A DNA stretch of 60,202 nt, filler included, from Asterionella formosa (taxonomy: Eukaryota): assembly GCA_002256025.1 (NCBI GenBank). It is 4 parts of 4 records of this genome, joined end to end, with 100 filler letters (N's around TTAATTAATTAA, not from the genome) between each part and the next. Parts side by side here need not be neighbours in the genome. Positions count along the whole stretch, not along the records: positions 45,248 to 60,202 come from NKIB01005659.1; 3 more parts are not named here. One strand, written 5' to 3'. Shown in pieces: positions 27,563 through 60,202 of this stretch (positions are counted from its first letter, which is position 1; every line of letters begins with the position of its first letter). A program made the position numbers and the translations under genes. Below the pieces are notes generated by a model that saw only the letters and a program-made list of their open reading frames with translations, did not search any database and had not been told where the DNA came from.

Positions 27563-27625
27563 GGTACCAGGTACCAGGTACCAGGTACCATGTACCATGT
27601 ACCAGGTACCATGTACCATGTACCA
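27563..27625. repeat. Heptamer array (G/T)GTACCA x9
   Basis: GGTACCA x4, TGTACCA x2, GGTACCA, TGTACCA x2. Confidence 0.95.
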
Positions 27626-30083: not shown

Positions 30084-30183
30084 NNNNNNNNNNNNNNNNN
30101 NNNNNNNNNNNNNNNNNNNNNNNNNNNTTAATTAATTAANNNNNNNNNNNNNNNNNNNNNNNNNNNNNNNNNNNNNNNNNNNN
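30084..30183. other. Artificial contig linker
   Basis: N44-TTAATTAATTAA-N44. Confidence 0.98.
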
Positions 30184-33100: not shown

Positions 33101-33484
33101 TCACAGGTCTAATTGGAAGATTTCGCCGTCATAGATCAACTCTGGTTCCGCTTGCGAATCTTGAATCGTGTCGAGAATCTCGCTGCCGTCGTTGGCATGG
33201 TTGACACAATATGAAATACCAGAGGATCCACCTCTTTTGGAGGATTTGAGTCTTGCCTGCACAATTCGGTTGTACATGAGCCAGGTCTTGAGGTCATATT
33301 CCGCTTTTGTGGAACACCCAGTGGAAGATGAAGCGGTCTCATACTGGTGATAACCTCGCCGACTTTGACACTGAATCGGCAATGATCTTTGTTTTGTTGA
33401 ATTCATTGGGGGCGATCTATTTATAGAGACGTTGGTGCAAAGGATGTTGGACCGGGCATTGATTAGAGATCTGGAATGGGCCAT
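33101..33484 (-). CDS. Small hypothetical protein with YDxxTWxMYxRI and C-terminal EIFQLDL motifs
   Basis: Single-exon ORF. The motif pair is familiar from small diatom proteins. Start codon uncertain (33484 or the downstream MNSTKQ Met). Confidence 0.65.
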   Translation of the reverse strand: MAHSRSLINARSNILCTNVSINRSPPMNSTKQRSLPIQCQSRRGYHQYETASSSTGCSTKAEYDLKTWLMYNRIVQARLKSSKRGGSSGISYCVNHANDGSEILDTIQDSQAEPELIYDGEIFQLDL

Positions 33485-35238: not shown

Positions 35239-36817
35239 ATGTCCGAATCCGACGAACTGGTCTGTCAGTTTATGGCCTTCTCTGGCTGTTCTGATGCTGA
35301 GCGTGCACAGTCGTATTTGGAAATGAGTGGAAATAATCTTGAGATGGCCATTTCCTTGTACATGGACCACTCAAGTGGAGGTGGAGCCGCGGATGCTGAT
35401 GGCGACGCTGGCGTTGCTCCAGGCTTGTCGGAAATACGAGCTCCCGACGCGACACAACGAATGCAACTCATGGACGTCGGACTCTCGGGGTATGGAATGC
35501 ACTTGGCCGACCCTGAACCAGAACCAATGAATATTCCCAACGCCTTTGCTATCGATACCGATATTAGAGCCGCCATTAATGCTGCGGTGATGGGAGAGCA
35601 CTCCAATGATGATGGCGAGGACGACGATGATGACGAGGAGTATATTCAAGTCATCGGGAGACCTGTTGGCACTACTGGATTGCAAACTATGTTCTCTCCG
35701 CCGACGCACCTCATGTACACTGCGGGAGGATTTCAGGGAGCTCGATCGGCAGCCAAGGATGCTAGACGGTGGTTACTCGTTAATATTCAGAGCGATGCTG
35801 AATTTAGCAGTCATGCTTTGAACAGAGACGTGTGGAGAGATGATTTGGTGGAAAATTTGGTTCGAGAAGGCTTCATTTTTTGGCAAACTGTGAGTATTTG
35901 ATATTAAAATGGAGAATCGTCATATTGCGCGTGACATCGTGTCGGAGAAGAATTCTCAGAGCGAAACTAACTCCTTGTGTTTCAATTTCACTCACCCTGG
36001 TCGTTCTAGTACGACGTTACACCTGATGGCCGGACGTATGCCCAAAGATACGATGTCCACGATTATCCCCACGTTGGCATTATCGATCCTCGGACAGGCC
36101 GCTTATTGTGGAGAAAGGAAGGTTGGACACAGGAAAAGCCCATGACAGCTGAAACTTTTGCGGAAATGGCCATGGATTTCTGTTCGCGTCATTCCTTCGA
36201 CAAGGAACCACAGGCTCCACGAGCGGCATCTGCGAGTATCAATAACGGAGAACGAAAGCGTCCCTTCATGACTGAACAAGAACAGATACAAGCCGCCATG
36301 GTTGCTAGTTTGAAGAAGGACACAATAACAGACGTTGCCACTGACAATGGCGATGGCGATAACGAATACTGCATGGAAGCCGATGACGATGACGAAGAGA
36401 TTGAATGCTTGGGCACTGAGGAAGAAATGAAACAAGTAGCTGAACCCGCATTTATTGAAAAGTTATTGGATGTGACTGTACCAGCTGAACCGTCGGACAG
36501 TGTTGCTCGTGTGCAAGTTCGCATGCCAGACGGAAAACGGCTGGTTCGAAAGTTTGCCAACACCGACAAGTTGCTGATAATTTATGCATTTGTGGCGGTA
36601 AGTGCTTTTAATTATTATTCACATTGGTGCTAGCATTCCCAGAATAATCCTAACACCTACACCATTTCGACAGCAAAACAATGACGAGGCCAAAGGCGGC
36701 AAAGAGTTTATATTGATGGCTGGCTTTCCTCCCAGGGATCTGTTGGCTAGACTCAATGACACTGTAGAGTCGTGCAAGTTGGCAGGGGAAGCAATATCGG
36801 TCCGATGGAAGGAGTAA
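35239..36817 (+). CDS. UBXN7/PUX7-like p97 adaptor (UBA-UAS-UIM-UBX, 460 aa); exons 35239-35889, 36010-36597, 36674-36817
   Basis: UBA-like N-terminus, WLLVNIQ...FSSHALNRDVW (UAS), EQEQIQAAMVASL (UIM) and VQVRMPDGKRLVRKF...GFPPR (UBX). Two GT-AG introns. Confidence 0.9.
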
Positions 36818-37796
36818 AAAGATCATTCTAAGACCCTCTGGTGTATAACGAAAGGGTATAGCTTGTTGCTCTTTAAAAGTTTTTAGTATCCCACTTGTTT
36901 CTGTTATTAGTCAATCTTAGTGGCCAACTGACTTGCGTTTAGGAGGCCCATACATTGTGTACTTGTAAGCATATTCCAGACACATGTACGCTCCGTAGAT
37001 CACAACCGCTTTCCTTAGGCCAGGGAAGGGATCGTGGTGCAGATTGCGAAAAACGGGGTGATCTCTCCAGGCATCTTGTCCGCGAAAAACCATGATATAT
37101 TGGAAATCTGTATAGAAACAATGTAACTAGGTTAGTTGGTGACCTGGTAGTATTCAAACGGGCGTGTTCTTGAGCAATGATATATGCCATATCGGAGGTT
37201 TAGTGCGACAAACAAAAAACTCGAGAATCGAGGTCTGACGAGCGCTAATGCTCGCCGAGTGACAGAATCGCCGAGTGCTGTGAATTTCTCGATTGATATT
37301 TCAATCGTCTCGTCTCCTCTGTTTCTCTTCAGTACATCGGCAGTAAACATGTCGCAGCATACGGATTGCAATGCTGAAGGAACGCACCTGGGAAAACAGT
37401 GGAAAGAACTGATTGTAGGCTGACAACAATTGTTTGTTACCGGTAGTCAAGTGCTACCTGATGAAAAAGGAACGCCGCGACTTGATAGAACTGATTAACT
37501 ATTTGCACAGACAAAACATTTATCTGGCACGGAAACCAAATAAAAATCGATCATGACATCGAGCGACTTTTGGCGCGCCAAAATTTCACATCACATCATT
37601 TAATAATTCCATTATTTTAGGATACCAGTAATTGATCGTTGCAGCTGGATCAAAAACTTAAAACGTGCATATGTTCCTGAATCAGCGTCCTGCACTTGCT
37701 TACTGTCCTCGTTGTCATTTATTTGATCCTTTCGTGCCTCTCTTTTCGTGGCTACAGCAACAGTAACAGTAACGACGCAAGACCAAGGCATTCAAC

Positions 37797-39146
37797 ATGG
37801 CCGCGCCAAAGCAAAACTCGCCCGTTCAAGCGACCGAGTCGTCGACACTGAAGGCGGCTCCTCAAGATCCTCCTGCCATGAAGGACCCTCCGTCTGGAAC
37901 TCCAGCCACTCCGCACAACGCAGCTTCGACGCATATGACGTTCCCTATGGATCCTCCTGCTGCTGATGCAACGGAGCCTGTTGAGGATCCCCCAGAGCTC
38001 ACCTACGCCGGCACGGAAGCATCGGCCGCATATTGCACCGCCAAGATTCTCCTCAATGACGGGGAGTTTGATCAAGCCCTGGAGATTATAGGAAATGCCA
38101 TGGCAAGGACCATGTCTAGGCTCCCGGAGGAATCTGGAACTCTCCACGAATGCATGGCTCCTTTTTACTATCTCTACGGAACAACCCTACTTTATTCAAT
38201 TGAAGAATCCTCGGACAATCTCGGACCCGAAGCGCCCGACGAAGAGGATGGAGGAGAAGACGCGGAAGACATTCAGATTGCCTGGGAAAATCTCGAAACT
38301 TCTCGTCACATTGTTTCCATGATGCGCGGGAAGGACTCGACCGATGATAAGCTCACGCTCGACTTGGCCCAAATCCACATGCGACTAGGCGATGTGCAAA
38401 AGGCAAATGACCGTTCCGCTGAGGCACTGGAAGATTACCGTAGGGCCTTGGAACTTCGTCAGCCACTCTTGGGCATGTACAATCGCAAGGTGGCTGATTT
38501 GTACATGCAATCCGCCATGGTATATATGACCCTGGCTAGTGCGGAGGGTGTCTCTGACGCACAAAAGGGGGAGTATACAAACCAGGCGTTGGAGCACTAT
38601 ATGGCTTGCGGCAAGTCGTTTGCTGGACTTATTGCATTTACCTGTGGACATAATCCAGAAGTTGTCACCAAGGATCCCGAGATATTTGTTGGTGGTAAGA
38701 CATCTGGAATGACGGAGGACGAACTACGAGTAAATCAAATGTCCCTCACCTTGAAGAACATTCGTGACCGTGTGGCCACCATGGGAGTAAATGACGAGCA
38801 GGTTCATGAGTGGAAGGAAATTCTCACAGAAATTCAAGAAACGATTGACGAAGCTGAACAGGCGGGAAAAGCCATGACAGAAGTGACTGAAATGAAGATT
38901 CAAGCGAAAATGGCAGCTGATGCAGAGGTGGATACTCCAAATTTGGATGGGAGTACTACCTCGATTGGATTTGGGGGAGTTACTGTAGCTGCGGTGACGG
39001 CGAATGTAACTAGCTTGGATGTGGCGTCAACTGGTGGGGCCAAACCAATGATGGTGGTTCGTAAAAAGAAGAAACTGGATCCCCCTGAGAACGACCAGAA
39101 AATGCCGGATGAAGGAAATATGAGCAAGCGAACAAAGAACGTGTAA
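37797..39146 (+). CDS. NASP/Sim3/Hif1-like histone chaperone (SHNi-TPR)
   Basis: CMAPFYYLYGTTLL, acidic insert, EDIQIAWENLETSR, LAQIHMRLGDV...ALEDY.RALELR and a basic C-terminal NLS. Confidence 0.88.
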   Translation: MAAPKQNSPVQATESSTLKAAPQDPPAMKDPPSGTPATPHNAASTHMTFPMDPPAADATEPVEDPPELTYAGTEASAAYCTAKILLNDGEFDQALEIIGNAMARTMSRLPEESGTLHECMAPFYYLYGTTLLYSIEESSDNLGPEAPDEEDGGEDAEDIQIAWENLETSRHIVSMMRGKDSTDDKLTLDLAQIHMRLGDVQKANDRSAEALEDYRRALELRQPLLGMYNRKVADLYMQSAMVYMTLASAEGVSDAQKGEYTNQALEHYMACGKSFAGLIAFTCGHNPEVVTKDPEIFVGGKTSGMTEDELRVNQMSLTLKNIRDRVATMGVNDEQVHEWKEILTEIQETIDEAEQAGKAMTEVTEMKIQAKMAADAEVDTPNLDGSTTSIGFGGVTVAAVTANVTSLDVASTGGAKPMMVVRKKKKLDPPENDQKMPDEGNMSKRTKNV

Positions 39147-41643
39147 GGTGTGCTATTAATTATTACTTTGTAGAGTCGAAATTTAGGCAAAATGATTTGT
39201 CGTCCACTGGATACCAATACGTGAGTCAATTTTGTTTCGATGTTTGCATTGCAAAGAAAGTTATAGAAGGGATGAGAAACGTCGCTCATATATGCATTTC
39301 AGTAGGTATTTAGTAGTCTGGGGGGCGCACAATCATCGCAGTGATTTGCATGATGCATTCGCTATGATGGATAAAAATGCGTTCATTTAGCGAAATACTT
39401 CTAATTTAACTCCAAAAGAATCGGCCAAATAAATTAGCATATACATTGCGATTGCTGTATAGTGTGGCAAGTAGTAATTCACTCTAACGTCACCTCATTT
39501 ATTAAGTGCCTCAAGACTACTTGAGTGTTGGTAGGGTAGCCCATATGGCACATTCTGGCATTCACACCCCAAGTTTTTTCAATACTTTCTTATGCCAAGA
39601 AGTATTAGGGGGCTGGTTGAACTTGTGGAATGGCAGGAGTTACAACACAACAACCAACAGGAGTCGACGTAGAGTGTGTGACAGTAGTAGGTACGGAAGA
39701 GGATGAAACTGATTGAGGAGTTTCAGGTGGGAAAGCACTATTGACCTTTTCAAAAACAGGAACGCGAGCCTGGTGATGCATCTCCATTGAAAGATTCTGA
39801 TATCTGGAGTTATTTCTGTGAAAGAGTGTCTAGATTTATCAAGAACATATGTGGTTGGAAGAGAAGCAGTTGAGTTTACCAGAGCAGAGATCATGCCTTT
39901 CTCCTGCAATGAGCTGTGCAACGATCTGGCTTCTTCATCCCAGAAGCAGCCAGTTGCAAGGTCTACGCATATCCTAGTTGCATAAACTTTTCCAAAACAG
40001 TCCCCAACGCTTCATAAAAAATATCTAGTTTACGTTGTTGTTGTGTAAATATAGAATCAAACAAAACAAATGTACTAGCAAGCAAGCATGCAAATATATA
40101 TTATTGACATGATTGTCAAGCAAAAAGGAAATTTTATAAACAATGAAGTCAAGCACTTACCTTAAGTTCCTTCTAAGGAGCTCTCCTTCTTCGAAAAAAA
40201 CTGTTCATTGCTAGCAATCATCTCAGGAGAGCAAATGTTATGACGGTAGTGATACACAATTTTCACAATGCAATTAAGGTCGCACGTGTCCTCGATCATT
40301 GTGCACTCGTGTAAACTGGCGTACCTGACCTATGGTACAGTATGTACCACGCTAGATCTACTATATCATTAGATGGTATAAGTCCTATGTAACGTTAACC
40401 TCATAGGCTCTTCTATACAGACCATATACTTCTTTACTCTCACTGTACTGTAGAGATTTACACAATACACACTGTGTATGTATGCCACGTCAACCATAAG
40501 TGAAAGGTGTACCCTTTTACATTACGCACACGACTACCATGGAACCCATACGTAGTACATATACATGTACACGAGAGTGGTCATGATTAGTACTTGATGC
40601 TATAGACACGGTTACTAGTATGTAGCTCGTAGTACATATTGCATTATGTACCCGCAGGTATATGTTACGTGATAACTACCGTTTATTGGTACAGATGTAT
40701 CTCTAGAATAGACGTACCAATGCTAGGCTAAAACATGACACCTAGCATGGACTCTTGACCTAGTACATGCCCTTCTCATCAAGAACCGCCCTTGTGAGTC
40801 CCCTTGGACTAGGAGCTAATATAGATACACTAATCATTAAGCTCATAATTACCCAGAACCTACTTGTTGAATCCTGACAACCGTAGGGCAGTACCTACGC
40901 TCAGTTTTCTGTAGAGTAAGAGCATTTTTTTCTTAATCACTGGGATGAAGGACCACAGTGCACAGTCCATTCAAATACCGACGGTCACCTTATCGAATGT
41001 CAATTCTGACTTCTCGATCGACCCACTGACACAAAATGATGCCTTACCCAGCTCCATAGTAGAAGAGACTTACTGCAGTCGTTGTAGTAGTTCTCAAAAG
41101 GAAAGAGCCTCGTGCTGTGGACATGCATTTCCCCATCTTCATGAGACAAACAACCTGTGAATACTTGTGATTTGTTGGAAGTATCAGGAGGTGGAGGAGT
41201 AGCAGGACAGGGTGCAATCTTCAAAGCTCTACATGATAAACCGTGGTGGCAGGGCACATTAAGCATGACAACGCACAATGAACAAGCACATAACTATCTT
41301 CTTCGCTTGTACCATAGCTACGGGACAACGCGGTATGCCAAATCTCTTCATATTCCTTTTGCTTGGCAGACTTCGAGATAACCAATGTCGACTTTTCGGT
41401 GTCATTGTAGTCAATTAAAAACGCGCATAAAGTAGGAGAAGTAATATTGTGATTAGAAAACATAGAACAGTGCTATTCTAGAGAGGAGGAATAACCAACA
41501 AAATAGCACTCAAAGTTGCTGCCGATGTCTTATATCAGGCAGATATATCCATAGAAAACACATCAGTAAAAATATTTATATTTTAACATCTGAAAACTGC
41601 TGATGATTATTGCTAATCTGAGACCATGGAAGCCTCAATTGGA

Positions 41644-42720
41644 TATCCTGTCTGCCGTTGCTCAATTCGGGCTTGCAACAGGGACCTTTTGACTTTCTCT
41701 TGATCCCATAGTCTGCTGCTTGTTATGCTGCCTAGTTAGAGCAGATTGGTCAATATACCAGTGAAACAATGGATGTGCGATGTAGATTCTATTTGTCCTA
41801 GTATTTGCGACTTGATTACTTACATTGTCTGTTTTGATCGTTTCTGTCTTGTTTTTCGTTCCGCTCTGTTATTTTGGTTCAATTGTATCTATCAACACAA
41901 GAGTCAATATACTATGTATCAATGCATACTCTTCAAAGATGCATTGATGTTGATCTTATTTGTTGATTTGTCAAAATTGCCACCAAGCAAAACTTTTCTT
42001 GTAATAACGCGCTTTGCTACCTTTCTACTCAGGGTTTGTATCATAAATTATGTATCAATATTCAGCTAGAGGGAGTTGATAGCAGTTGAGCAGCCTGGTG
42101 ATCATGCTTGGTGCTCAGAATGGAATTATCAGGGTTGTTTGGTGGGAGGAACAGAACTGTGGGCGGAAGCACTCCTGCTAGTACGTGTGTCAGGTTACAG
42201 CTATGTGCATGGTTGCAGCAACCAGATGATCTACAATACATCATGATACAGATCTCAGTTGGGTTCAGTTTTTTCTTCTCATCTGTTTTATTTCACCACT
42301 CTTTGATTGTGTGACGGAAAGTCAATGTTGGCTGTGTAAGTACTACAATGCATATGTCTCCACTGAAACTCCAATTTTTTACTTCTTTTCTAACCTAAAA
42401 CAATTTTATCTATTTCTCATTTGACACTATTAATTACATTTCATATCATACTTTGGTTGCTCCAAACACCGTGTTCAATTTTTATTGATATTGTATGCTA
42501 CAAACATTCTCGTGTGTTCAATGCTTGTTTTCCCATTTCTATGTAAATTACCGTTATTCTGGCTGTCATGCTAAAATCGGCAATTTTTTATCCCGAAAAA
42601 TTCGATATGCCCCATATTGCCCCTAAACAAAAATTAAATACTTAACAACAAGTTACTTAAAGTTTTAAAATTACTTAGAAGTGCCCAAGAGGCAAGTTCA
42701 TAGATGGAACAGGAATTGCC
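41644..42720 (+). mobile_element. GGCAATTC-ended TIR element, copy D (right about 1.1 kb)
   Basis: Colinear with 4779-5850. Ends ...GATGGAACAGGAATTGCC. Confidence 0.85.
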
Positions 42721-42722
42721 TA

Positions 42723-42915
42723 GGTAATATCCTACTCGGTAGGAGTTAATTTGAGTATTCGACTTGGGAGTCCCTAGCAGGTTGCCCTTCTCCCAACGCC
42801 GGGGGTGCCACTCGTTCGGTCAACCTACCGGTACTCGCGCCTCCCAAGTCGAGTACCCGTACTGTGCATACACAAAAATACTCCTCGCAGGCAGTCGCCA
42901 CCCGGTCGTGTCTAG
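42723..42915. mobile_element. Second copy of the small GGCAATAC-type hairpin MITE (inverted relative to 12206-12396)
   Basis: CGCCGGGGGTGCCACTCGTTCGGTCAACCTA[CCGGTA]CTCGCGCC matches the reverse complement of about 12272-12310. Internal inverted repeat TCGACTTGGGAG / CTCCCAAGTCGA. Confidence 0.7.
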
Positions 42916-43268
42916 TACTGGTACCAGGTACCTTCAACATTACCCACGGTACCAGGTACGAGTTTGCAAGAAGGCAGGCAGTGCGTTGAATTGTCCTTGC
43001 TTTTCTTCTTGGCGATCGCTCAGCAGCAGGTATGGAATAATCTATGATTTCATATGGTTATGAGTTTGCTTGATGGCTGGCTTTATTTACACATTCATCA
43101 TCTCATACTACATCCAGCGTACAGCACAGAAAACATAGTGTACTGGTCGTGCATATGATAACAAGTAATAATCCGGCAGAGACCATACTACACGGTAATA
43201 ACAAACAATTGTATTGATCACATGCAAATGTAGGTGCAGTCATCAGTATACCCTTCGAAAGCATCACC

Positions 43269-44654
43269 ATGGCCGACCGATCATCCTCGTCTGGGGAACT
43301 CGCCGCTCCGAGGAAAGAGATTTATACGTATAAGGCGCCATGGACTGTATTTAGTATGGCGTGGTCGCATCGGTACGTTACGTGTAGTGTTTCTATTCAA
43401 TTGTTCCTTGAACAAATGGCCAAATGGTGTTGATTGTGCGCCACAGCCTCGTGTCTATTTACTCACAATTTACTTTGCATGCCATGGTATTACGTACCCG
43501 CAGTCCTGACCCGTCCTCTCAATTCCGTTTGGCCATTGGCTCCTATGTCGAGCAATATTCCAATTCAGTTTCTGTCATTAAGAAGAATCCAGAGTCGTCT
43601 CAACTTTATCAAGCTTGTGAATTCGATCATCCCTACCCCTGCACGAAAATCCTATGGAGTCCAGATGCTGGTTCACAAGGATCGAAAGATTTGCTTGCAA
43701 CCACAGGCGACTATTTGAGAGTTTGGAATGTTACTGATGATCCGCAATCTGGGAAAGGAATGTTGTTACCAACTAAGGAGGCCTTGTTGAATAATGTGAG
43801 TTATTGTTTGCCCTTTTTTGCAGTTATACAATTTGTAATTGTGTCTCTCTCTCTTGATTTGCTAAAACGAGTCATTCTTCCCTTCTTCGAGACCGCACAG
43901 AACAAAACGTCGGAATATTGTGCTCCCTTGACTAGCTTCGATTGGAACGAATCAGATCCCAACATCATTGGCACCTCCAGTATTGATACAACATGTACCA
44001 TTTGGGATTTGACCACACAGACTGCACGGACTCAATTGATTGCACATGATCGAGAAGTTTTTGATTTGGCATTTGCACGAGGGAAGGATGTTTTTGCATC
44101 CGTGGGAGCCGATGGAAGTGTGCGAATGTTTGATTTGAGGTCTTTGGAGCACTCTACTATTATATATGAATCTCCCAATTTAGACCCACTTTTACGATTG
44201 GAATGGAACAAGCAAGATCCAAATTATTTGGCAACCTTTATGCTGGACAGTCGACGAACAATCATTTTAGACATTCGTGTGCCATCATTGCCAGTTGCAG
44301 AACTGGGAGGACATTTGGGATGTGTCAACGCCACTGCGTGGGCTCCACATTCATCCTGCCATATTTGCACAGCAGGAGATGACTCACAAGCACTTATTTG
44401 GGATCTAAGTCAAATGCCCAATCGACCAGTGGAAGATCCTATTTTGGCATACAATGCTGATGGAGAAATTAACAATTTGCAATGGAGCGCTATTCAGCCA
44501 GATTGGATCAGTATTGCCTACAATGACAAACTTCAAATACGTGAGTACAATTTTTAACATTTCCGTTCGTGTGATCATATGTTTTTGTGTATGCTATTTC
44601 TAAATCTCATTGTTCTTTTTGTCACAATGTTTAATTTCTACAGTTCGTGTTTAA
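43269..44654 (+). CDS. DCAF7: DCAF7/WDR68 (AN11/TTG1-like) WD40 protein; exons 43269-43372, 43504-43795, 43901-44540, 44644-44654
   Basis: KEIYTYKAPW, FDHPYPCTK, LLATTGDYLRVW, CAPLTSFDWNE, QLIAHDREV and GSVRMFDLRSLEHSTIIYE. Splicing gives the canonical KLQILRV stop. Confidence 0.93.
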
Positions 44655-45066
44655 TGTCTATTGTTCATTAACTTCATATTACAATTGTATGTGGCTTGGA
44701 ACATAATCTATTGCAACCTAAAGAACCTTAATCTAACTCTGGCAATAGTAAATACTGGTGTATATTTCACTAGGTAGTTTCAGGCAAAAACACTAGGAAC
44801 AGAAACTCCCATTGAATATACTGAGAGGTTATTGTAAGCCTTAACCCAATGAGTCATTTACTCCATCCAATGCCCACTGCTCCTTGACCTTTTCAGTTTC
44901 AGATAATTCATCTGCTCCCTGTCATGATAGCAAACTGGTTCCATTTGATCATCAAAACTTATCTTCATTTTGCTTTTCTGATTCCCAAGGAATGTTTTGT
45001 CATCATCCAGTAGACATCAGTCAAATATGACGACATACGAAGATTCATGAAATTATCAATCAAGTC

Positions 45067-45147
45067 TTATTGTATGTTAGAGCTATCCAATAATTGCACT
45101 CGTGCCCAAATAAATGAATAAATGGACACAATTAGGTTTCATTCATC
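45067..45147 (-). mobile_element. 3' tail of a second SINE copy, cut by the contig end
   Basis: 45067-45108 matches 611-652 at 38/42. Similarity continues with gaps to the contig end. Confidence 0.8.
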
Positions 45148-45247
45148 NNNNNNNNNNNNNNNNNNNNNNNNNNNNNNNNNNNNNNNNNNNNTTAATTAAT
45201 TAANNNNNNNNNNNNNNNNNNNNNNNNNNNNNNNNNNNNNNNNNNNN
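45148..45247. other. Artificial contig linker
   Basis: N44-TTAATTAATTAA-N44. Confidence 0.98.
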
Positions 45248-45520
45248 TTGCCTTCCAGTGGCATACCGGTAGTAGGACTGAAGCGCGTCCAGAAAGATAC
45301 GCTCCTTTTCGGCTACTGTGAGACGAATGAGTTCCCCACTTTCCGGATCGACGACACAGTATTCCTCGTCAGGCATGCATTCTTCTTCCTGCAAGTTACC
45401 GGTAGTCTCAAAGAATCGTCCAGACTTGGCGTCGTAAGCGATTTCTCTCGTTCCGCTCGTAATGGTGATCTTTTCGTCGCTTCCTTCTTCGGCCATTAAA
45501 AGTGGACCAGCAACGGCCAC
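45248..45520 (-). pseudogene. PGRL1: PGRL1-like gene fragment (N-terminal part), probably a damaged copy
   Basis: EYCVVD...IRLTVAEKERIFLDALQSYY..TGRQ resembles PGRL1 (YC.ID....T.GE.EQEFLQALQSFY). Two in-frame TACCGGTA sites. No intact signal peptide upstream. Runs off the contig. Confidence 0.7.
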
Positions 45521-45639
45521 ACGACCAGCTGTTGTCGTTGTCTTCCTTAAAGTTCGATGATCTTAAATTCATTTACCGGTACCGGTACCGGTACCGGTAC
45601 TGTCCCGCTGTAGTAGCAGCAGTCATAGACATACCGGTA

Positions 45640-45922
45640 TGGTGTTCTATTGCTTGCTTATTACCGGTACTCCGACTACCGGTACCGCTTTTCAGTTTCA
45701 CGATCATACAATCCTAAAACTACCGTAGTATGATGATTTACTATGGTGTGATATTGCTTGCTTATTACTCCGACTACCACTTTTCAGTTTCACGATCATA
45801 CGATCCTAAAACTATGATGATTTACTGTCCCACAAAATTTGCAACAGTCATGAAAATATGGTGTTTTATTTGTTTTTAGTTTTTCGATCATACGATCCTA
45901 AAACTATGATGATTTACTGTCC
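45640..45922 (+). repeat. Dispersed and degenerate copies of the 92-bp satellite unit
   Basis: 45793-45922 is about 1.4 units of the 59948-60202 repeat. Two related degenerate units lie upstream (about 45640-45743 and 45744-45830). Confidence 0.85.
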
Positions 45923-46248
45923 GAGCCGGCTTCTGGTTCGTCCTCGTCAACCGGTATTTTCTGATCCAGCAAGCCGCCCAATTTACCATTTCCTTTCAGA
46001 CCATCAGGCTCTTCAGGAGGGTGAAGGCCGCCGCTCCGGGATTTGGAACTGGACTTGAAGAAGGTCTGATCCTTGAAGCTTTCAATCATATGAGGCAGTT
46101 CGTGCGATGCAGAGCCGCCAGCGTACATGCTCAATGTCATGGAAATCACACCGAAACTTAAAAGACTCAACAGAAAGATAAAGAATTCGATGCCGCTTTG
46201 CCGCTGCGGCCGAGGAGTGTCCGTTGCTCTCCTGCTTGGCGTCGACAT
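45904..46248 (-). pseudogene. 5' fragment of a type II membrane protein gene, truncated by the satellite
   Basis: MSTPSRR...FFIFLLSLLSFGVISMTLSMYAGG (one TM helix) with gene-like composition. The frame ends on entering the repeat at 45922. Confidence 0.45.
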
Positions 46249-46409
46249 GGTGGGCGTCCGTCCGTGCTTGGCTGTAGTGGTGCACAACTGCCTCGTCTTC
46301 TCAAATGCTGATGGTATGCATACGGTACCTGCTAAGATACCGTTATACCGCATGGTATCCATACCCCGAGGTATCACTGATATTTACGCCTATCATAGCA
46401 ATGTACCGG

Positions 46410-48159
46410 TCCGATATTGCCCATCATCAAAATATATTTACGATATTTCCTATCTTCGCATTTTGGCATTACAATTTGTAGCAATTGCCCCTCGGTTTTC
46501 CAGCCCTGGGATTGCCAAAATTGGCAAGGGGTCTACTTAAGGAAACCATTTTATATACTCAGAAGACTTTAATAATTTATATCTAGAATTCACCTCTCGT
46601 TTTTGTTCGTCTCCTCAAAAGTGGACTCCGGCAATTCACCTTTCACCATGCCAATCATCATCCATCATGACCGGTTTGAAGCGAAATCAGTTCAGCAATG
46701 ACGCCAGTAGCGATTCGTTGTCTAACGGATGCGGTTGGTTGTTGTATTGCTTGTCTTCTCGAGGGATTCATGTAGTCGCATTGTCCATATTTCGTTGGAC
46801 GAACAGTGATATCGATGCATCTGATGTTGGTTGCAAGTTTTTGCTCCGGTCATGCCTGTGAGGACGCTTAACGGATATTCTACCGGTAGTCATCTAGCCT
46901 ACATACGTACATGGTACTGAAAACAACCATGCATGGTTTAACCCTTACTTTGAGCATGTTATAATATTATCTCTGTAGACTCGGTATTATCTTTACGAGA
47001 CCAGAATGTTAAATTGTATCATTCACATATTGATTGATTTTACATACTGTATGCCCGATTTCGTCCTCACAAATATAGTTCTCACTCTATCTTGCCTGCC
47101 TTTGCTCTATTCGGGCTTGCAATGGGGAATGTTCGTCTTCCTTTGATCCCATTGTCTGCTGCTTGTTATGCTAGTTGAAGTGGATCAGTGAGTACAACAG
47201 TGAAACACTGAATGTGGATTGTAGATTGTATTTATTGACTTTCCGATTTGATTGCTTCTGTGGTTTGTTTTGATCGCTTCCGTCATTGTTCATCATTCCA
47301 CACTGTCATTTTGTTTCGATTGTATATATCTACATAAGAACCAATGAATTTATCAATGACTACTCATTGAAGATGTGGTATTGTGCCATTGTTGATCATA
47401 TTTGTTGATTTGTATAGTTGTTGACAATGATGTCAATATTGCCGCCAAGCAATGCTTTTCTTGTACTAACGCGCTTTGCTACATTTCTACTATGAGTTTG
47501 TATCAGAAGCTACGTATATTCAGCAAGAGGGAGTCGATAGTGCTGAAGCAGCCTGGCAATTATACTCAATCAGAATGGATTGGAATGGAATGATGATCAG
47601 GGTTGTTTGGTGGTGGGAGGACTGCAACTTGTGTCAGGCTCCTATAGAAATGTGCATGGTTACAGCAAGCAGATCATCTACGCTACATAACGATGCAGGT
47701 CAAGATTGGGTTCAGCTTTTTCCCTTCTTATTTTGGTCATTGATTGTGTGGTGATGGAAATTCAATAGCCTGTGTAAGTACTACAATGTCACAATGCATA
47801 CATCTCCATTGAAACTCTTATTTTTTACTTCATTTCTAACCCAAAACAATTTTTTCTATTTCTCATTTGATGCTACTTATTACATGGCATTTCATACATT
47901 GGTTGCTCCAAACATCATGTTCAATTTTCATTGATGTTGCATGTTACAATCATTCTTGTGTGTTTTACGCTTGTTGTACCATCTCCATGCATATTACCAT
48001 TACTCTGTCTGTCATGCTAAAAATCGGCAATTTTAATGCCGAAAAATTTGATATGCCCCATATTGCCCCTAAATAAAAATTACTTAAGAAATTACTTAAA
48101 GTCTAAAAATTACTCAGAAGTACCCGAATGGCAACACGATTGCTGGAGCGGGAATTGCC
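46410..48159 (+). mobile_element. GGCAATTC-ended TIR element, copy B (most complete; lacks about 130 bp of the left end)
   Basis: Left part matches 12533-12930 and the right part matches copies A and D. Ends ...GCTGGAGCGGGAATTGCC. Confidence 0.85.
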
Positions 48160-48578
48160 TTCAGCAAGCAACAAAGCCAACATCCATCATGACAAGTACA
48201 TTCATTAACAAAAATGAGTAATACCGCTAGACATCACTGAATGTTCGCATTTGGGAACACTACTTCAAATTGTAGGCACTAATATGAACGAGCCCACCAG
48301 TTCTCGATTGCCTTTTGGTTGATGTATAGTGTGGCTACTAATGAATATCTGGGATTACCTTCTCACATTCCAAATCAAAGCGAAGCGAACACCGGTATTT
48401 CATTTGACATGAATGTTGAATCACATCAATTCTTATCTTCTGAATTTCAGATCACTTTTTGAACAAACAACTGATTATCAAGAATCAAAGTAAGTTTCTA
48501 TGTTTCTGTTGCTCGAATCATGGATATACGCTGCTGTTCCTCACGCACGTAATTCATACGCACTTACATGGCATCAGA

Positions 48579-50342
48579 ATGAAGATTTACTTCGCACTTT
48601 CGTCCTCCATTGCCTTTTTGTTGACAGCCTCCTGTTCAAGGGCAAGAACCGGAGCTGACTCGGCACCGTTCGAGATTTTGGTCCACAAGAATGTCAGTGG
48701 TTGGGCGCCATTCGCGCTTCTTGCCACTCGGAACCGTGCAGGCCGAAACTCAACAGTGAACCCAGATGGTATCCACCTACGCAGGGCTGCTTTTAAAGAG
48801 TCCGGCTTAAAGATCAAGTGGTCAATTGAAGGTATAAATGGACGAGATACATCCATTGCGAACAATAACCTAAGGTATGAACCATCTGATCAGGGTCTCT
48901 GTGCTGGTAATGGATTTTTCATGCATACAGTGAACTGTGCAACCCAAGTGTACAATGCCAAGACTGGCAAGCCTCTCACTAATGTCATATCCACCAATGA
49001 GTTCTTTCATTTTCCACCTGAGTGGGATGATAAAACCAAGAGTTGGGGAAAGTATGCAACTGACCCAAGCTGTCATTATGACCCTGACACAGATCGATGG
49101 TTTCATGTAGTTGCACACATAGAAGTCAATCCTGTCACAAGAGATTTTACTGGCCCAAACTACCTGAACCTGGCTGTGAGCAAGAGTGGTGATCCCACAG
49201 GAAAGTGGGACATCTATCGAATCCCAGCTACAAATGATGGCACAGAAGGAACACCCAACCATCAATGTGATGCAGTGTTTTGTGTGGGTGATTTTCCACA
49301 ATTTGGCATGAACAAGGATGGAATTTTTATCACAACAAACGAGTATTCATTGTTTAACGAGCCTTTTTATGGGGCACAGGTGTATGCGATCTCTAAGCCA
49401 GACTTGGTTGATGGAAAAGATTCGATCACAGCTTACCTGTTTGACACACATGTTGATCCCTGGAAGCCAGTTGGAACAGAATATGGAGGAACTGTGTGGC
49501 CAGCAAAATCAGCAGGGACTCAATTTGATAAACACCAGAAAGGTACTCAATACTTTGTTAGTGGCAATGCAGAGTGGGATATCTCCTCAACACATATCAA
49601 TATTTGGGCCTTAACCAATACTCAGTCACTCCAGTCATCAACCCCTGCTTTGAAGCTCACAAATATTGCTGTCAAATCTCAATACTATGAGATTCCACCC
49701 CCATCTGTTCAGAAGGAAGGAAGCATCCCTTTGGGAAAGTCCAATTATAGTGCTACAAAGGCAGGCGCTATTGATACACTTGATGCAAGGATTCTTGATG
49801 TCCGTTTTGCAGATGGTAAGCTATGGGCTGTACTTTGTACAGGAACAACAGTGAGTAGACAGAAACAAGCTGGTGTTGCCTGGTTCATCCTTGTTCCATC
49901 AGTATCAAAGGCAGGTGTAACTGCCAAGATGTTGAAGCAGGGTGTTCTTGCTATGAAGGGTGAGAGTCTTGTGGTTCCAACAGTTGGGGTAACAACCAAT
50001 GGAAAAGGAATCATTGGGTTCACCAGAGTGGGTAAAAAGCTCTATCCCAGTCAAGGGTATGCTTCCATTGATGCTGTTTCTGGTGTAGGTCCTGTTTCCA
50101 TGTCGGCCATGGGGAATGCCCCTAATGATGGATATAAGGAATACCAAGAGCACAATGGGGTAATTCGTCCTCGTTGGGGAGATTATTCTGCAGCTGCAAT
50201 TGATGGCAAATATGTGTATATTGTCAATGGTTACATTGAGCAGGGAAAGTGCTCAGTAAAGGAGTTTATGGCAACTGAATGCAACAGAACACGCAGTTTT
50301 TGGGTGAATTGGAGTAGCAGGATCACCAAAACTAAATTGTAA
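48579..50342 (+). CDS. Secreted beta-rich protein of bacterial appearance (587 aa), function unknown
   Basis: Intronless. Signal peptide MKIYFALSSSIAFLLTASCSRA. Motifs EPSDQGLCAGNG, TDPSCHYDPDTDRWF, LAVSKSGDPTGKW, GDFPQFG, TTNEY and RWGDYSAA recall bacterial secreted hypothetical proteins. Confidence 0.85.
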   Translation: MKIYFALSSSIAFLLTASCSRARTGADSAPFEILVHKNVSGWAPFALLATRNRAGRNSTVNPDGIHLRRAAFKESGLKIKWSIEGINGRDTSIANNNLRYEPSDQGLCAGNGFFMHTVNCATQVYNAKTGKPLTNVISTNEFFHFPPEWDDKTKSWGKYATDPSCHYDPDTDRWFHVVAHIEVNPVTRDFTGPNYLNLAVSKSGDPTGKWDIYRIPATNDGTEGTPNHQCDAVFCVGDFPQFGMNKDGIFITTNEYSLFNEPFYGAQVYAISKPDLVDGKDSITAYLFDTHVDPWKPVGTEYGGTVWPAKSAGTQFDKHQKGTQYFVSGNAEWDISSTHINIWALTNTQSLQSSTPALKLTNIAVKSQYYEIPPPSVQKEGSIPLGKSNYSATKAGAIDTLDARILDVRFADGKLWAVLCTGTTVSRQKQAGVAWFILVPSVSKAGVTAKMLKQGVLAMKGESLVVPTVGVTTNGKGIIGFTRVGKKLYPSQGYASIDAVSGVGPVSMSAMGNAPNDGYKEYQEHNGVIRPRWGDYSAAAIDGKYVYIVNGYIEQGKCSVKEFMATECNRTRSFWVNWSSRITKTKL

Positions 50343-50664
50343 AGACAACATGGACAAAGCATATAGTGGTTAGTAGTACTTTGATATAGTTTTCACACTG
50401 CAGCGAACTCAAATCTGGGTTCTCTCTTTATATATTGTTTCGCTTATTCCTGGTACTATCTATGAACACCACTGCATGCTACTGCTGACCTCAACGTCCC
50501 TCACCATGTCCAAATCAGACACAATCTCTCTTGCCAACCCAACTCCTCACTCCCAAATGCCAACCATCTTCCCCTTTGCCAGCAATCAATCAGCGCAAGA
50601 ACCAACAAAATCAACCATGGCATCATTGAAAAAGACAAGAAAAAAACACAACCATCCTGCAGTG

Positions 50665-50771
50665 CTCCATATTTGCCCCTAAAATATTCCTTAAGAAATG
50701 ACATAAATTTGAGCCAAAAAATAACTTAGAAGTAACTGAATGGCAAAATGATAGCTGGAGCGGGAATTGCC
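50665..50771 (+). mobile_element. Isolated right terminus of the GGCAATTC family (copy C)
   Basis: CCATATTTGCCCCTAAA...TTAGAAGTAACTGAATGGCAAAATGATAGCTGGAGCGGGAATTGCC, homologous to 48058-48159. Confidence 0.8.
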
Positions 50772-53700
50772 GAAATCAGCAAGGGGTCTACTTAAGGAAT
50801 AAATTTTATATACTCTACTTGATTATAATATATCTAGTATTCACCTTGTTTTCGTTTTGTTGCCTAAAAGCTGACTCCAGCTCTTCACCTTTCACCATGC
50901 CGATCATCGTCCATCATGCCCAGTCTGAAGCGAAATCAGTTCAGTGATGACATCAGAAGCGATTTGTTGTCGAATGGATGTGGTTGGTTGTTGGATTGCT
51001 TGTCTTCTTGTGGGATTCATGTAGTTGCATTGTCCATAATTCTTTGGACAAACAATGATGTTGGTATATATCTTATGTTGGTGGCAAGGTTTTGCTCCGG
51101 TCATGTATTTGATGATGCTTAAATGACGGATATTCCAGTCATATAGCCTGCATATGTACTATGCATCTAAGCCGCGAAATACGCCACTTTTCGAAATTTC
51201 ATTTATGTAGGAGTGTTAATGATGGGGTACTTGACATGAATTAATGCCACTCTTCCCGTAAAAAAGGTTAATTTTAACGGTTTCATGTGAAGTTTTCACA
51301 ATGAACTTTGAACTCAAGACTGAATTAGTTGATGTTTCAAATAATTCATTTCAAAGTTCAACTAATATCCTGCTCTTGTGGCTAATTCATTTACTACACG
51401 CATCTTTATTTGTGAAATAGTAAGGATATTTGTGGTGTCTTATTTCATGCATGGACAATCTACAGTTTATAGTTGTGCACTTCATGTAAAATATATGAAC
51501 TATTATTGTTCGCATTGTCAATGTAAAATTGGCAAAGCAATGCCGACTCGAGAGAGTGTCCTTCAGCGCTCATCAGAAGCACTCATGCGACAATAGCTTA
51601 CCAAGTTAATTACTGGTGGTACAAGCACCCTGAGTGCGTGTTGTTGTCTTGCTGCGCTGTGTCGTGGCTCAGTTGTTCTAACCCCTTGGCGCTTCTTCCC
51701 CTCAAATACTCCATCCGTACTCACGATTGGTAGATTGATTATCACAGCAAGGCGGATTGCAGTCATCGGACGCACGCTTAGTCAAAGTGGCCCTGCTGCA
51801 GAATTCAAATCTTTCCATTCTCAAACCAGGTTACAACAACTTGGGCAACAAAGGTATGTTTCAATACATTGGCTGTTGGGATTTCAGCACACCACGCTTT
51901 GGGATCGTTGGATCTTGGATTCAGCCAAGTCGGCGATGATGGGATCAGATCATAGGAACGTGCTTTGTTTGGATCTGCCTTGCATACGCTCTACTTGGCA
52001 GGGAATCACATGCGGGAAGAAGGAGCCATGGCGTTGGCTGGTGGGATCAGGAGAGGGTGCGCTGTGACCAAACTTTATTTGACTGGAAACTGATTAGCTA
52101 GGACCAGATGGAGTGATTTCAGTAACAGAAGCCATTCTAGATGAACTGAGAAGGAGAAAAACGTCATATCGAGTCAGTGACACTCTGACACACAAGGGAT
52201 CCAAGAACTCTTTTTAGATGAAACAAGCATGGGACCAATGGGTTGCCATGTAGTAGTTGCTATAATGCTCTGAATGGCGCTGTACAAATCACACAGAATT
52301 GAGGAAAACACGAGTGAATTGGTTAACTCATCAGTTGATTGTTTTCAATATAAAATCCAGGCGTATTTTTTACTATATTAGGACGTGGCTAATGGTAGAT
52401 CATCCAGTGCATGTGCAATTAGGAGTAACTATTGGCTGTCTTCTCTCCCTCTTGTCATATTTGTTCAAGTCACACTTGTAGCCTCAGAAATTTGTCGAAA
52501 TTGTTCTTAGCAAGACTGCGCCAGATTTTTTCGTGTAGATTTTAGGTTCTGTTGGTACAAAGAGGAAGTCATGGCTGCACCAGGATTTTTGACCATCTGA
52601 ATTCATAAAAACACCATCATTCAACACCACTGTGAACAATTTATTTTCAACATGGGGACGACCCTTACAACTAGCATCCCCCTTCCATATTTTCAGCTGT
52701 CTTATTATAAACAATTCTTTTATCAGCTCACATATGGTTTGTTGCACCAACAAAAGGTGGAATGATGCAACATTGAGATCGTTCGCAGTGGATGTTTTTT
52801 AGGTAATTTTTTTCTTGCTATTTTTGCTATCATGTCACCAAGCGAGTGATAATTCATAATGATATGCTGCTATTCTCAACATTCATTGACATTTGAACAG
52901 ACCTTTCCAAAAAGGAGTGTTCTCTTGAAAGCAGGAGTGATCGAAGGTGAAATGATGCAATATGGAGACCCGCAATGGAAGATTTTACTAAGGTAAGCTT
53001 AATCCTCAGTTTTTGTCATCACATCAGCTAAGCGAGCGATAAATCACGTGGTTCTATCATTGTTCTCTTCATTTGTTTTACATTTTAGCCGTCCATTTCA
53101 CAACAGGAGCATTCTTTTGAATGCATCAGTGAGTTGCGGTGCTGCCTGGTGGCTAATGCCGGTGTCTTGCTTTCAATTTGACTGCTCCGTGAAACAGTTG
53201 AATAGCACATGTGTGTGTTGCTCTCTGCTGTTGCTAGTTCTATTAAATGAATTTCTGACACACTGTTGTTATGTGAATCTTAGCAGGTCAATGAAGAAGT
53301 CATTTCAAGGACAAGAAGGAAGCCAGTGTGATGCATTCCTGTTACAATTTCGCACCATGATGCCTCTTCAAGAATGAATAATTTTTTCATTCAGAATGAA
53401 CGGCTTCTGTTTGTCTTGTATTGTCCTTACAGACATCTCATAATGCCTGCCTTCTCAAGACTGAAGATGCCATTCTGAAAGAACTGCTTTGTTTGATTGC
53501 ATATCGAGATTTGTTTCCCATGTAATGTGAAATACCGGCAGTTGAATTAGAAATCAACATATTTGATTGTACTTTTAAAATACGAAAACAAATTTAATAC
53601 ATTACGTGAACATTATTATTAGGCAATGTGAACTAAATTACAGAATTAATTGAAGTATATCAAATAATTACGTGAAGTATATCAAATAATTATGTGAAGG

Positions 53701-55059
53701 TGATCACGTAATATAGTGATGATCAGGAATGCATGCATGATACTCTGATCAAATAATTAACGTGATGTATTCAGATAATATATGGATATATTCAAGTAAC
53801 CATTTTGATGTATTCAACTAATTCATGTGATCCATTCAAAATCAACTAGGCTTATTTACGTGATGGTCACTTCACGTAATACGTGGCATAGATGTGTGGC
53901 ACTAAAAACAACCATGCATGGTTTAAGCTAAACTTTAAAGCTTACTTTGAACACATTATAATATTATTGCTTTAGACTCAGTATTATCTTTACAAGAACA
54001 GAATGTTAAATTATATCGTTCACATATTGATTGATTTTACGTACTGTATGCCCGATTTCGTCCTCACAATTATAATTCTCACTCTATCCTGTTTGCCTTT
54101 GCTCTATTCGGGCTTGCAACAGGCAACGTTTGTCTTTCTTTAATCCCATTGTCTGCTGCTTGTTATGCTAGTTAGAGCGGATTGGTGAGTACAGCAGTGA
54201 AACAATGAATGTGGATTGTAGATCCTATCTATCGAATTTCCGATTTGATTGCTTCTGTTATTGTTTGTCGTTCCGCACTGTCATTTTGTTTCAATTCTTT
54301 ATATCTACATAAGAACCAATGTATTTATCAATGAATAAACTTTCAAGATTTATTGTGCCGTTGTTGATCTTATTTGTTGATTTGTATAGTCGTTGACAAT
54401 GATGTCGATATTGCCGCCAAGCAATGCTTTTCTTGTACTAACGCAATGTGCTACATTCTACTACGAGTTCATATCACAAGCTATGTATCAATATTCAGCT
54501 GGAGAGATTCGATTTTGCTGGAGCTGACTGGCGATCATATTCAATCAGAATGGATTGGAATGGAATGATGATCAGGGTTGTTTGGTGGGAGGAACGACTG
54601 TGGGCGGAAGGACTGCAACATGTGTCAGGCTAGTACTACAGCGATGTGCATGGTTGCAGCAACCAGATCATCTACGCTACATAACGATGCTCATTTCAGT
54701 TGGGTTCAGCTTTTTTCTTCTTATATGTTTTTTTTCGGTCTTCGATTGTGCGATGAAAAATCATTGTTGCCTGTATAAGTACTAAAATGCATGTGTCTCC
54801 ACTGAAACTCATTTTTTTCATTTTATTTCTATCCCAACAAAATATTTTCTATTTCTTATTTGACAATACTTATTTCATTATATAACTTACTTTGGTTGCT
54901 CCAAACATCATGTTCAATTTTCGTTGATATTCCATCTTACAATCATTCTTGTGTGTTTAACGCTTGTTTTGCCATTTATATTACCGTTATCCTGGCTGCC
55001 ATGCTAAAATCTGCATTTTCATTGGCGAAATAATCGATGCGCCCCCTCCAAATAAAAAC
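50772..55059 (+). mobile_element. GGCAATTC-family copy E, split into 50772-51159 and 53899-55059 by a nested insertion
   Basis: The two parts correspond to adjacent segments of copy B, meeting near 46910 (CATACGTAC|ATGGTACTGAAAACAACC). Confidence 0.85.
51160..53898. mobile_element. Nested 2.7-kb TIR element with TCACGTGA-like subterminal repeats
   Basis: Ends TATGCATCTAAGCCGCGAAATACG (51160-51183) and revcomp CACACATCTATGCCACGTATTACG (53875-53898), 17/24 identical. Many (T)ACGTGA/CATGTGA motifs at 51230-51500 and 53600-53885. Confidence 0.7.
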
Positions 55060-56192
55060 TATCATATATCCATGAAGCATCATAGGATTCTTGTGATCAC
55101 CTGATCATAATTTTTCGTTGTATCATCTAATAATTTTGATAAATGCCCTTGTAATTTAAATAGTAACCCTTTTGACTACATATATTTAATTTTTATATGT
55201 ATTGTTTCTATAAGATTCCTGTATTCGAATTTCTTGGGAGGATAATGTACCAGCTAAAATCATTTCCATCCATCATCACTCCGATTTTTGCAACAACAAC
55301 GAAATACTAGCGATGACAAGTGGAATGATTGTTTGCGATAACAACGTCTTCAATTGTTGGTCAAGTGATCATTATATCTTTGAGTAATAGTCATGTGCAG
55401 TGAACCTATGTTCATAATCATTCAATTGTTGAATTTGTCCGCATCTTTTTTACCATCAATAGAGCGACAAGTGGCTCTCTTCATTGTTGTTTTCTCTCGG
55501 AAAAGTCGGTGTCTGTGTCTTCCTCATCAATAGATGACAAGTGTCCTTCATCATTGCGGTTTGACGCTGGAAAAATTGGTACCCAAATCGTCATTCGCAC
55601 GTTGGAACGACTGTCCGTTGCCTCAATTGCTTAGCGTGTGTGTTTTTGCAGTGTCAACTTGTTTACATTATAGGATTGATTTAGCTTATAAAGTGCGTGT
55701 TATAATATCATACTCTGTAGTACGATGCAGAATACTAAAGTTCCCAATCATCTCATCATGATTGATAAGATGATAATTTGATATCACGATAGGGTTCCAT
55801 TGATGCATACATCACCAAAGTATGATACATATTATTGAATCAAGTATATCACATAGCTATGATGCATTGATCAAAGAACTATGATGTTTTCTTAAATGTT
55901 TATTATATAATTTTGATCAAAATATGATCATGTTAAAATAATACAATGATAATAAAAAACGATAAAATATGTACAAAAGTGTTATCAATACATCATAGAA
56001 AATAGATAAAAAGAAAATATTTGATCTGGTTCTTGAGAACCCAGAAAAGGGTAATGACAAACCTTTTTTTTACACCAAGGTGTTTGTCATCAACTTCATC
56101 ATGGCAGTAAATACTGTATGTGCTAATTGTTTTTTGCATAAGATCAGATGAGGAGGAAAACAATCATTTTGTGCATTTTCTTTTTGCTATAA

Positions 56193-57160
56193 ATGATGGA
56201 TTATGTCAAGTCCGTGATCCAGGAAAAGATGCAAGTTCGGATGAACATTATGATCGAGTATTTCACCTTGGCGTGTAAGTACCGGATCATTCCTGCATGC
56301 ACCAAACAATTGGAATTGCTATGCACCGATAGAGGATATCTTCCACAAGAGTCGCATACACCTGAAGAAATTGGTTTATCGGAATCTTTCTATACTGGCA
56401 CCAAAGCAAGGCGCCATTGCAGATCATTAAGGCCACTGAACATGATTCCATGTTATTTCAACCAGAAGATGATAGTGGATGGTCATGTGGACCATTTACA
56501 ATTGTGAAAGTATTGGAAACTCTATTGCAACTAGAAAGGAATGACAAAACCAAATTTCTTGGCAACCGGGCTCAATTCCATTTGGATACAGAGTCCTAGA
56601 AAGTTTTAAAACGTCAGGTGGAAGCAACTGATCAAACAGACGATTTTTTATCTGTTACATCTGACCCACTGACCAAGTCAACATACTTTCATCTTGGAAC
56701 AGTTTGGCCTCAAGTGACAACGACAAACATTCATGAGCATATGTTTCAGTTGGAAGTAACTGTTCTTCAATTTTGTATGGACAAATTTTTGAGCTCCTAC
56801 TTAGATTTTAAGATTTTAAACGAAGTATTTGGACAACTTCCATGAAATTCATCTTTCAAGAACGATGATGTTGTCAAGGTGAAATCCATGATCCAACAAA
56901 TGAATAAAAAAGTTGCTCCCTTCAAATGGTATAGTCATGCACCTCTTGGCCAAATTTCTGGATGCATCAAAATTGATAAAAAGTTGAAAAAAATTGTTAC
57001 TGATGATATGATAGCCCTTCTGGAATAAAAATTGAAAAAGTTTACAGAATCATATCGAACTGCAGTTGAAAAGTGGAGAAGAAAAATTTCGGACAAAACG
57101 AGAAGGACCATCTTATGTTCTTTGGGAGTGAAAAAGAACAAATAATTGACCATTGGAATC
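56193..57160 (+). pseudogene. Possible Ulp1/peptidase C48-like remnant
   Basis: Fragmented ORFs, including LFQPEDDSGWSCGPFTI, which resembles the Q...D..SCG.F catalytic-Cys box. Confidence 0.35.
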
Positions 57161-57349
57161 ATCCAATCTCATCATTCCTTAGGACATTGTAGTTTGTGAA
57201 AACCTTCTAATAACTTAACTAGTATGTGAAACTAAATTATCATTATTTTTTATACTTTTCTTGTGTATTTATCAACGTTCGCTTGTTAGTTTTTGGTCCC
57301 ACCCGATTGATTTCCATAAATGATGTGGAGGCACTCCATTACCAACCAT

Positions 57350-59947: not shown

Positions 59948-60202
59948 TTTGCAACAGTCATGAAAATATGGTGTTCTATTTGTTTTTAGTTTTTCGATCA
60001 TACAATCCTAAAACTATGATGATTTACTGTCCCACTAAATTTGCAACAGTCATGAAAATATGGTGTTCTATTTGTTTTAAGTTTTTCGATCATACGATCC
60101 TAAAACTATGATGATTTACTGTCCCACTAAATTTGCAACAGTCATGAAAATATGGTGTTTTATTTGTTTTTAGTTTTTCGATCATACTATCCTAAAACTA
60201 TG
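59948..60202 (+). repeat. 92-bp tandem repeat (satellite), about 2.8 units, running off the end
   Basis: GCAACAGTCATGAAAATATGG recurs at 59951, 60043 and 60135. Confidence 0.95.

Follow-up and report, generated by a model that had tools for sequence, protein, structure and literature searches.

The window, by which we mean the whole stretch of DNA that was analysed (60,202 nucleotides), consists of four pieces of about 15 kb each (1-15003, 15104-30083, 30184-45147 and 45248-60202). The spacers between them (15004-15103, 30084-30183 and 45148-45247) are made of 44 N, TTAATTAATTAA and another 44 N. Since the pieces are separate, pairs such as 42826 and 12283 compare separate loci. The genes of the window are of the diatom type and include those for a DUF3593/DUF2499 protein and an RsmB-like methyltransferase as well as WD40, TPR and UBX genes. 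The Rad51 exon shares 98% identity with one protein, whereas its identity to named proteins of diatoms is 92-93%, and the named matches of a PGRL1-like open reading frame (45248-45562, minus strand) are all from diatoms. No relatives of the protein encoded by the open reading frame at 24822-25760 were found in a metagenome scan. One block of a 92-bp satellite is located directly upstream of the PGRL1-like gene; altogether, two of the four pieces carry this tandem satellite, with six complete or partial copies at 45560-45926 and 59935-60202.

The most frequent 8-mer of the window, words with N set aside, is TACCGGTA. It is present 30 times, which is 60-fold the order-2 expectation, and 100 dinucleotide shuffles of the window yielded a mean of 0.22 and at most two copies, so that none of them reached 30. 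The top of the 8-mer enrichment list is made up of words that overlap with it. This bears out the signature of micro-insertions at TA that a sequence-only reading of this DNA had described. The window contains 110 CCGG, 30 of which have TA on both sides, while every other pair of flanks was found three times or less. TACCWGGTA is present 18 times, corresponding to 18 of the 83 CCWGG in the window. For the cores located between TA and TA, observed and expected numbers are 30 and 0.5 for CCGG, 13 and 0.2 for CCAGG, 5 and 0.2 for CCTGG, 11 and 1.1 for CCAG, 5 and 1.1 for CTGG, and 7 and 2.1 for CCG; CCGG is the sole core in excess among the 16 palindromic 4-mers. The variants have C(C) at the start and (G)G at the end (CCWGG 18, CCAG/CTGG 16, CCG 7). 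The central base of the longer core is W at the 18 TACCWGGTA (13 CCAGG and 5 CCTGG, some of them within one tandem array) versus S at two sites (TACCGGGTA), thus it looks templated and not randomly added. TACCAGTA and TACTGGTA are each one CpG transition away from TACCGGTA and are most simply explained as its decay products. Of the three insertions that had been predicted to be in excess at TA, CCGGTA (30) and CCWGGTA (18) are, but CATGTA is not, since TACATGTA was observed twice in the window with 2.06 expected.

To describe the distribution, TACCGGTA, TACCWGGTA, TACCAGTA and TACTGGTA were counted together, which gave 64 sites at 54 loci. Only one of these sites is located in an open reading frame of at least 150 amino acids, yet 956 of the 3731 TA dinucleotides are. 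The distance between neighbours is 150 bp or less in 28 cases; when TA outside open reading frames were drawn at random 2000 times, there were 9.5 such distances on average and never more than 19. The four pieces contain, in order, 3, 26, 25 and 10 sites. Clusters are intergenic and often on the promoter side of genes. The cluster at 23926-24342 is intergenic and contains five TACCGGTA together with TACCGGGTA and TACCAGTA, and the one at 27365-27989, intergenic and 3′ of Rad51, contains TACCWGGTA, TACCGGTA and TACCAGTA. Three TACCGGTA and one TACCAGGTA are found at 32163-32484, and four TACCGGTA, six TACCWGGTA and related forms in a divergent intergenic region at 33850-34890; the fifth cluster is located at 45574-45730. 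The rank of TACCGGTA as the commonest 8-mer supports the sequence-only reading, which had called the scars a dominant intergenic motif.

The last of these clusters falls into the satellite, where the inserts are confined to a single copy (copy A), the remaining copies having a plain TA. In copy A the TA within tttactgtccc has become a tandem array, TA(CCGGTA)4 (45574-45599); the three other copies covering this site (C, E and F) show plain TTACTGTCCC and no CCGGTA unit. TACCGGTA at 45632-45639 (aaaaTAtggtg) corresponds to a gap of six columns, with plain TA in all four other covering copies. Two further TACCGGTA (at 45662 and 45677, within 45662-45684) are opposed to TTACTCCGACTACC in the adjacent copy at 45765-45778, and the comparison of 45661-45686 with this copy, which had been pointed out before, indeed reveals two gains of 6 bp. 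A variant, TACCGTAGTA, is located at the TA of aaaacTAtgatg (45721-45730), where all five other copies have a plain TA. Altogether, at least eight events are found in 160 bp of one satellite copy, with none in the adjacent copies. If the inserts are excision footprints, such a density beside untouched copies requires a strong hot spot or local hopping.

Two of the motifs are located in the PGRL1-like open reading frame, both on the minus strand. TACCGGTA at 45264-45271 adds YR in QSYYRYATG and TACCGGTA at 45397-45404 adds TG in FFETTGNLQ; the motif codes for exactly these additional residues. In a MAFFT alignment with all 63 homologues found, neither insert is present in any of the 63; in one divergent sequence the YR place is taken by letters that bear no relation to the insert. 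The nearest relative (P0122), 98% identical in the alignment, has neither of them. Removal of 6 bp at either site restores a plain TA and keeps the frame. The earlier claim that the insertions preserve the frame of this gene is thus confirmed with two in-frame inserts of two amino acids each.

Paralogous sequences allow the same comparison elsewhere in the window. TACCGGTA at 42826-42833, in the context aaccTACCGGTActcgcg, has a plain TA as its counterpart in the paralogous copy at 12283-12284, which reads aaccTActcgcg on the reverse strand; the pair of 42821-42839 and the uninserted reverse complement at 12274-12286 was therefore described correctly. A second pair was found to be only partly as described. 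The repeat copy with TACCGGTA at 46881-46888 is 6 bp longer than the copy at 51128-51142, but the shorter copy has CA and not TA, which is an exception to the anchoring at TA. In a further copy (4557-4570) TACCGGTA is followed by CTAGTA, a second TA-anchored gain of 6 bp with another palindromic core.

Several repeats were observed in the window. A family of about 1.3 kb is found at 4530-5849, 41644-42721, 46857-48158 and 53896-55045, with 74-84% identity between copies, and also at 12531-12908, 46408-46910 and 50766-51159; its open reading frames have no Pfam match. The region 15858-16725 contains two direct repeats of 265 bp that are 99.6% identical and 339 bp apart, and the second ends exactly at TACCGGTA. 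In four metagenome runs the depth of this region is 30 to 70 times that of single-copy DNA, which makes it a multi-copy element. At 16725, to which an element junction had been assigned, the second repeat copy ends, and in the metagenome comparison this position falls at a contig end. An element junction at 32246 was not confirmed; the likeness of 14752 and 32247 is due to chance and lies beside a paralogous gene piece. A hairpin at 29966-30048 has arms of 21 nucleotides (95% complementary) and a loop of 41 nucleotides; the 500-bp bin around it has a depth of about 450 times single-copy in run X4, so that it might represent a small element with a very high copy number. The region 21104-22103 shows 80 to 100 times the single-copy depth in four runs, with a repeat boundary near 21780.

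DNA nearly identical to that of the window is present in contigs of freshwater metagenomes from 16 studies. We compared contigs of four other studies (X4, X6, X7 and X9) over 15104-30083. At 24440-24441 the window has an empty TA, as has X6, whereas X4 and X7 carry TACCGGTA with TACCGG inserted behind 24439; the scar is thus present in contigs of two of the three independent metagenome studies covering the site. Both the empty and the scarred allele have been seen here: the site is a natural polymorphism and reflects recent or ongoing activity. An occupied allele was not found at any scar site among the indel and joint rows listed, and there may be more polymorphisms than the one at 24440. The X4 pieces listed have no indel at the motifs at 16834, 23926, 24118, 24163, 27640, 27704 and 27731, and the X6 pieces listed have none at the motifs across 24118-24335. 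Since contigs from independent studies carry the same sites, an assembly artefact can be dismissed. One difference is not explained by excision footprints: at 24231-24238 the window and X6 have TACCGGTA, X4 and X9 have TACCTGCA, which is of equal length but differs by two changes that fall within a stretch of three bases, although the DNA is nearly identical elsewhere.

The arrays also differ between populations. A tandem array of TA-CCAGG and TA-CCATG units at 27556-27626 is shorter by 35 bp (5 units) in X4, X6 and X7 (27577 to 27613), which shows that arrays slip once they are formed. In each of the four runs the depth of the bin with the arrays is 70 to 130 times that of single-copy DNA, and GTACCWGGTACC arrays are common to many metagenome contigs with unrelated flanks. 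Every run has dozens of contigs that break in this bin, with a flank agreement of only about 0.4. Depth and breaks fit many loci with such arrays in the same genome; they could also come from other organisms in the samples. Evidence on the genome-wide extent proposed earlier is therefore indirect and comes from the four separate pieces, all of which have sites, and from these contigs.

The direction of the change was addressed along three independent lines, namely the satellite copies, the PGRL1 homologues and the polymorphism at 24440. Wherever polarisation is possible, the motif is derived and was gained at a TA that was there before. A duplicated TA surrounds the scar and a single TA is present when it is missing; this was found in the satellite, for 42826 and 12283, at 24440 and at both PGRL1 sites. 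Paralogues and outgroups agree in that these are gains and not losses, as had been proposed: plain TA is present in four of four and five of five satellite copies, and the insert in none of the 63 homologues. The gains are anchored at TA, have 6 bp and are not copies of the flanking DNA, which likewise corresponds to the earlier description. As the flanks of the single gains contain no CCGG, slippage and template switching can be rejected for these. Slippage of the microsatellite or minisatellite type does not apply to them since the new unit is no copy of an adjacent unit; this is true only of existing arrays.

Taken together, we regard it as probable that the TACCGGTA sites were left as scars by the excision of a TA-duplicating cut-and-paste DNA transposon with a chemistry of the Tc1/mariner type. 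In Tc1/mariner transposition, the transposase cleaves the non-transferred strand a few nucleotides within the element, and after end joining two to four terminal nucleotides, either the first or the last ones, stay behind between the TA copies (PMC6943129). The element proposed here would start with CC and finish with GG. On its departure, staggered cuts would leave a few terminal bases on either flank, and end joining between the two TA copies would convert TA to TA-CCGG-TA (+6 bp) or TA-CCWGG-TA (+7 bp). A self-complementary CCGG overhang, or CC joined to GG, would account for one dominant scar. If four bases were left on each flank, two self-complementary CCGG overhangs would result that could be joined by simple ligation, which would explain the uniformity of the scars. 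A cohesive overhang of 4-5 nucleotides is at the upper end of the range described for the superfamily, which counts against scars of this origin. Tandem arrays might arise by re-insertion into either TA of a scar and by replication slippage, and clusters by local hopping together with a preference for open intergenic DNA and selection against hits in genes.

The source of such scars was searched for in the window. No element with inverted ends of the type TA|CC...GG|TA was found in the 60 kb, the scar sites of the window share no sequence past TACC, and none of its 72 open reading frames of at least 90 amino acids contains a transposase domain, a search that covers only 60 kb. Candidate inverted ends at 672 and 2438 were rejected since the match stops at 14 nucleotides. 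A candidate element end seen twice in the metagenome joint letters was discarded as well, being not above chance in the window. Because element, transposase and occupied allele were not found, the excision mechanism is read from the anatomy of the scars, from which we infer a transposon, its termini and the repair route. The sequence-only reading had also arrived at excision scars, and what speaks for it is that the inserts are derived, TA-anchored, polymorphic and in frame and that the CCWGG class exists; the missing excess of CATGTA speaks against it.

A second metagenome scan, which used three TACCGGTA within short gaps as the pattern, returned 116 loci, none of which matches the window by blastn. 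Most of them come from unrelated organisms and represent satellites or repeat elements with TACCGGTA inside the copied unit. The three-motif pattern selects for repeats, so these loci say little about the genome studied here. Clusters of TACCGGTA can have other causes. One locus, L079, resembles the window. It is a contig of 6.1 kb from another diatom, with an ankyrin open reading frame whose named relatives are all diatoms, and its intergenic clusters contain six TACCGGTA, three TACCWGGTA, two TACATGGTA and two TACCAGTA/TACTGGTA. This is the motif spectrum of the window, and the selection covered the TACCGGTA class only. The two paralogous units of L079 share 64% identity and are too diverged to polarise its sites. 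Short loci resembling the window are L002, L022, L024/L053, L037, L068, L012 and L019. The process is thus not limited to a single species. Among the other loci, L011 (1-1608) is an AT-rich contig (26% GC) with a 1.3-kb element that has inverted ends matching at 19 of 20 positions; these begin with CCGGTAC after TA, and TAGTACCGGTACTAA repeats are subterminal at both ends. L020, L026, L032, L040, L042, L066, L074 and L080 form a repeat family with TTACCGGTAAC/G runs at the ends; it belongs to an organism other than that of the window and has units of about 640 bp bracketed by the runs.

Other origins of the motif have to be weighed against excision scars. The motif could be written at TA by a process that is independent of transposons, either by a nuclease, perhaps a domesticated transposase, with repair by a fixed string or by templated micro-insertion of CCGG(TA). 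That neither a source element nor a transposase lies within the window would agree with this, as would the extreme uniformity of one scar type (30 TACCGGTA) and the crowding of at least eight events next to untouched repeat copies. We nevertheless regard this as unlikely: repair would have to add CCGG untemplated, and we know of no repair route that does so, while 60 kb are too small to expect an autonomous element. In addition, a TA duplication around a palindrome that looks like terminal bases is the specific signature of TA-duplicating transposons (PMC6943129).

Selection could also have favoured the motif as a palindromic functional site, for instance in promoters or for protein binding, which spread by slippage or gene conversion of a unit of 6-7 bp. 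TACCGGTA is a perfect palindrome, the motifs are intergenic, lie on the promoter side and avoid open reading frames, and the unit number of an array differs between populations (35 bp, 5 units). Gains of a single unit at a plain TA are, however, impossible by slippage where the flank is without CCGG, and gains are also located within satellite copies and, in two cases, within coding sequence, which makes a functional site very unlikely. Finally, the clusters might be subterminal repeats or satellites of a larger repeat family containing TACCGGTA, like most of the 116 metagenome cluster loci, which are satellites or elements with subterminal TACCGGTA (for example L011). In the window, however, the sequence that separates the motifs does not recur from cluster to cluster, no inverted ends surround the clusters, and the polarised cases are clean gains of 6 bp in otherwise collinear sequence. 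We consider a larger repeat of this kind highly improbable.

Excision scars as such are textbook knowledge. Our literature search, whose matches were primers or unrelated work, revealed no earlier account of a genome with a single scar that ranks first among the 8-mers, is located in frame in a conserved gene, varies in wild populations and seeds tandem arrays. If these are transposon scars, excision can be, besides insertion, a dominant mutational force. It would have added two-residue inserts to a conserved photosynthesis protein, littered promoter regions with a CpG-containing palindrome and seeded tandem arrays of variable length, and the scars would allow past transposon traffic to be counted and would serve as a marker, one in which natural populations already differ. 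A bolder view, which we put forward only tentatively and hold to be rather doubtful, is that diatoms have a very active TA-specific cut-and-paste system with self-complementary CCGG ends that leaves an identical palindromic scar of 6 bp at each visit or, more radically, that a nuclease and repair write the motif without any element. If such an active TA-specific system is true, its scars would be a major source of frame-preserving indels in genes and promoters, would seed tandem arrays of 6-7 bp units and would record transposon traffic across species. Should no matching element exist, one would have to look for a new TA-directed insertion process.

The window shares dense clusters of the same 8-mer, TACCGGTA, with the repeat families L005, L025, L039 and L011. 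In L005, L025 and L039 the word is copied along with the rest of a unit and recurs at constant spacing, and in L011 it is associated with inverted ends, whereas in the window it represents separate gains in unique sequence. The window clusters have neither bracketing inverted ends nor conserved spacing or spacers and thus do not form an element with subterminal repeats. Among the known excision systems, Minos of the Tc1 family leaves a scar with a gain of 6 bp, composed of the TA duplication and four terminal nucleotides, which is known from experimental mobilisation in flies and not as a genome-wide signature. Common to Minos and the window are the net gain of 6 bp and the frames that are kept; the termini differ. 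The canonical scars of Sleeping Beauty are TACAGTA and TACTGTA (PMC6943129). Like these Tc1/mariner scars, the sites in the window have a duplicated TA around a few bases, here the putative termini of the element, with one dominant form and trimmed variants, and the CCWGG class, with A or T in the middle, corresponds to the C(A/T)G scar, in which the central base is likewise one of these two. In contrast to Sleeping Beauty, no donor element is known here and the core has 4-5 nucleotides (CCGG, CCWGG) instead of three. Unlike Tc1/mariner footprints, the scars of the window are the top 8-mer, are located in frame in coding sequence and seed tandem arrays.
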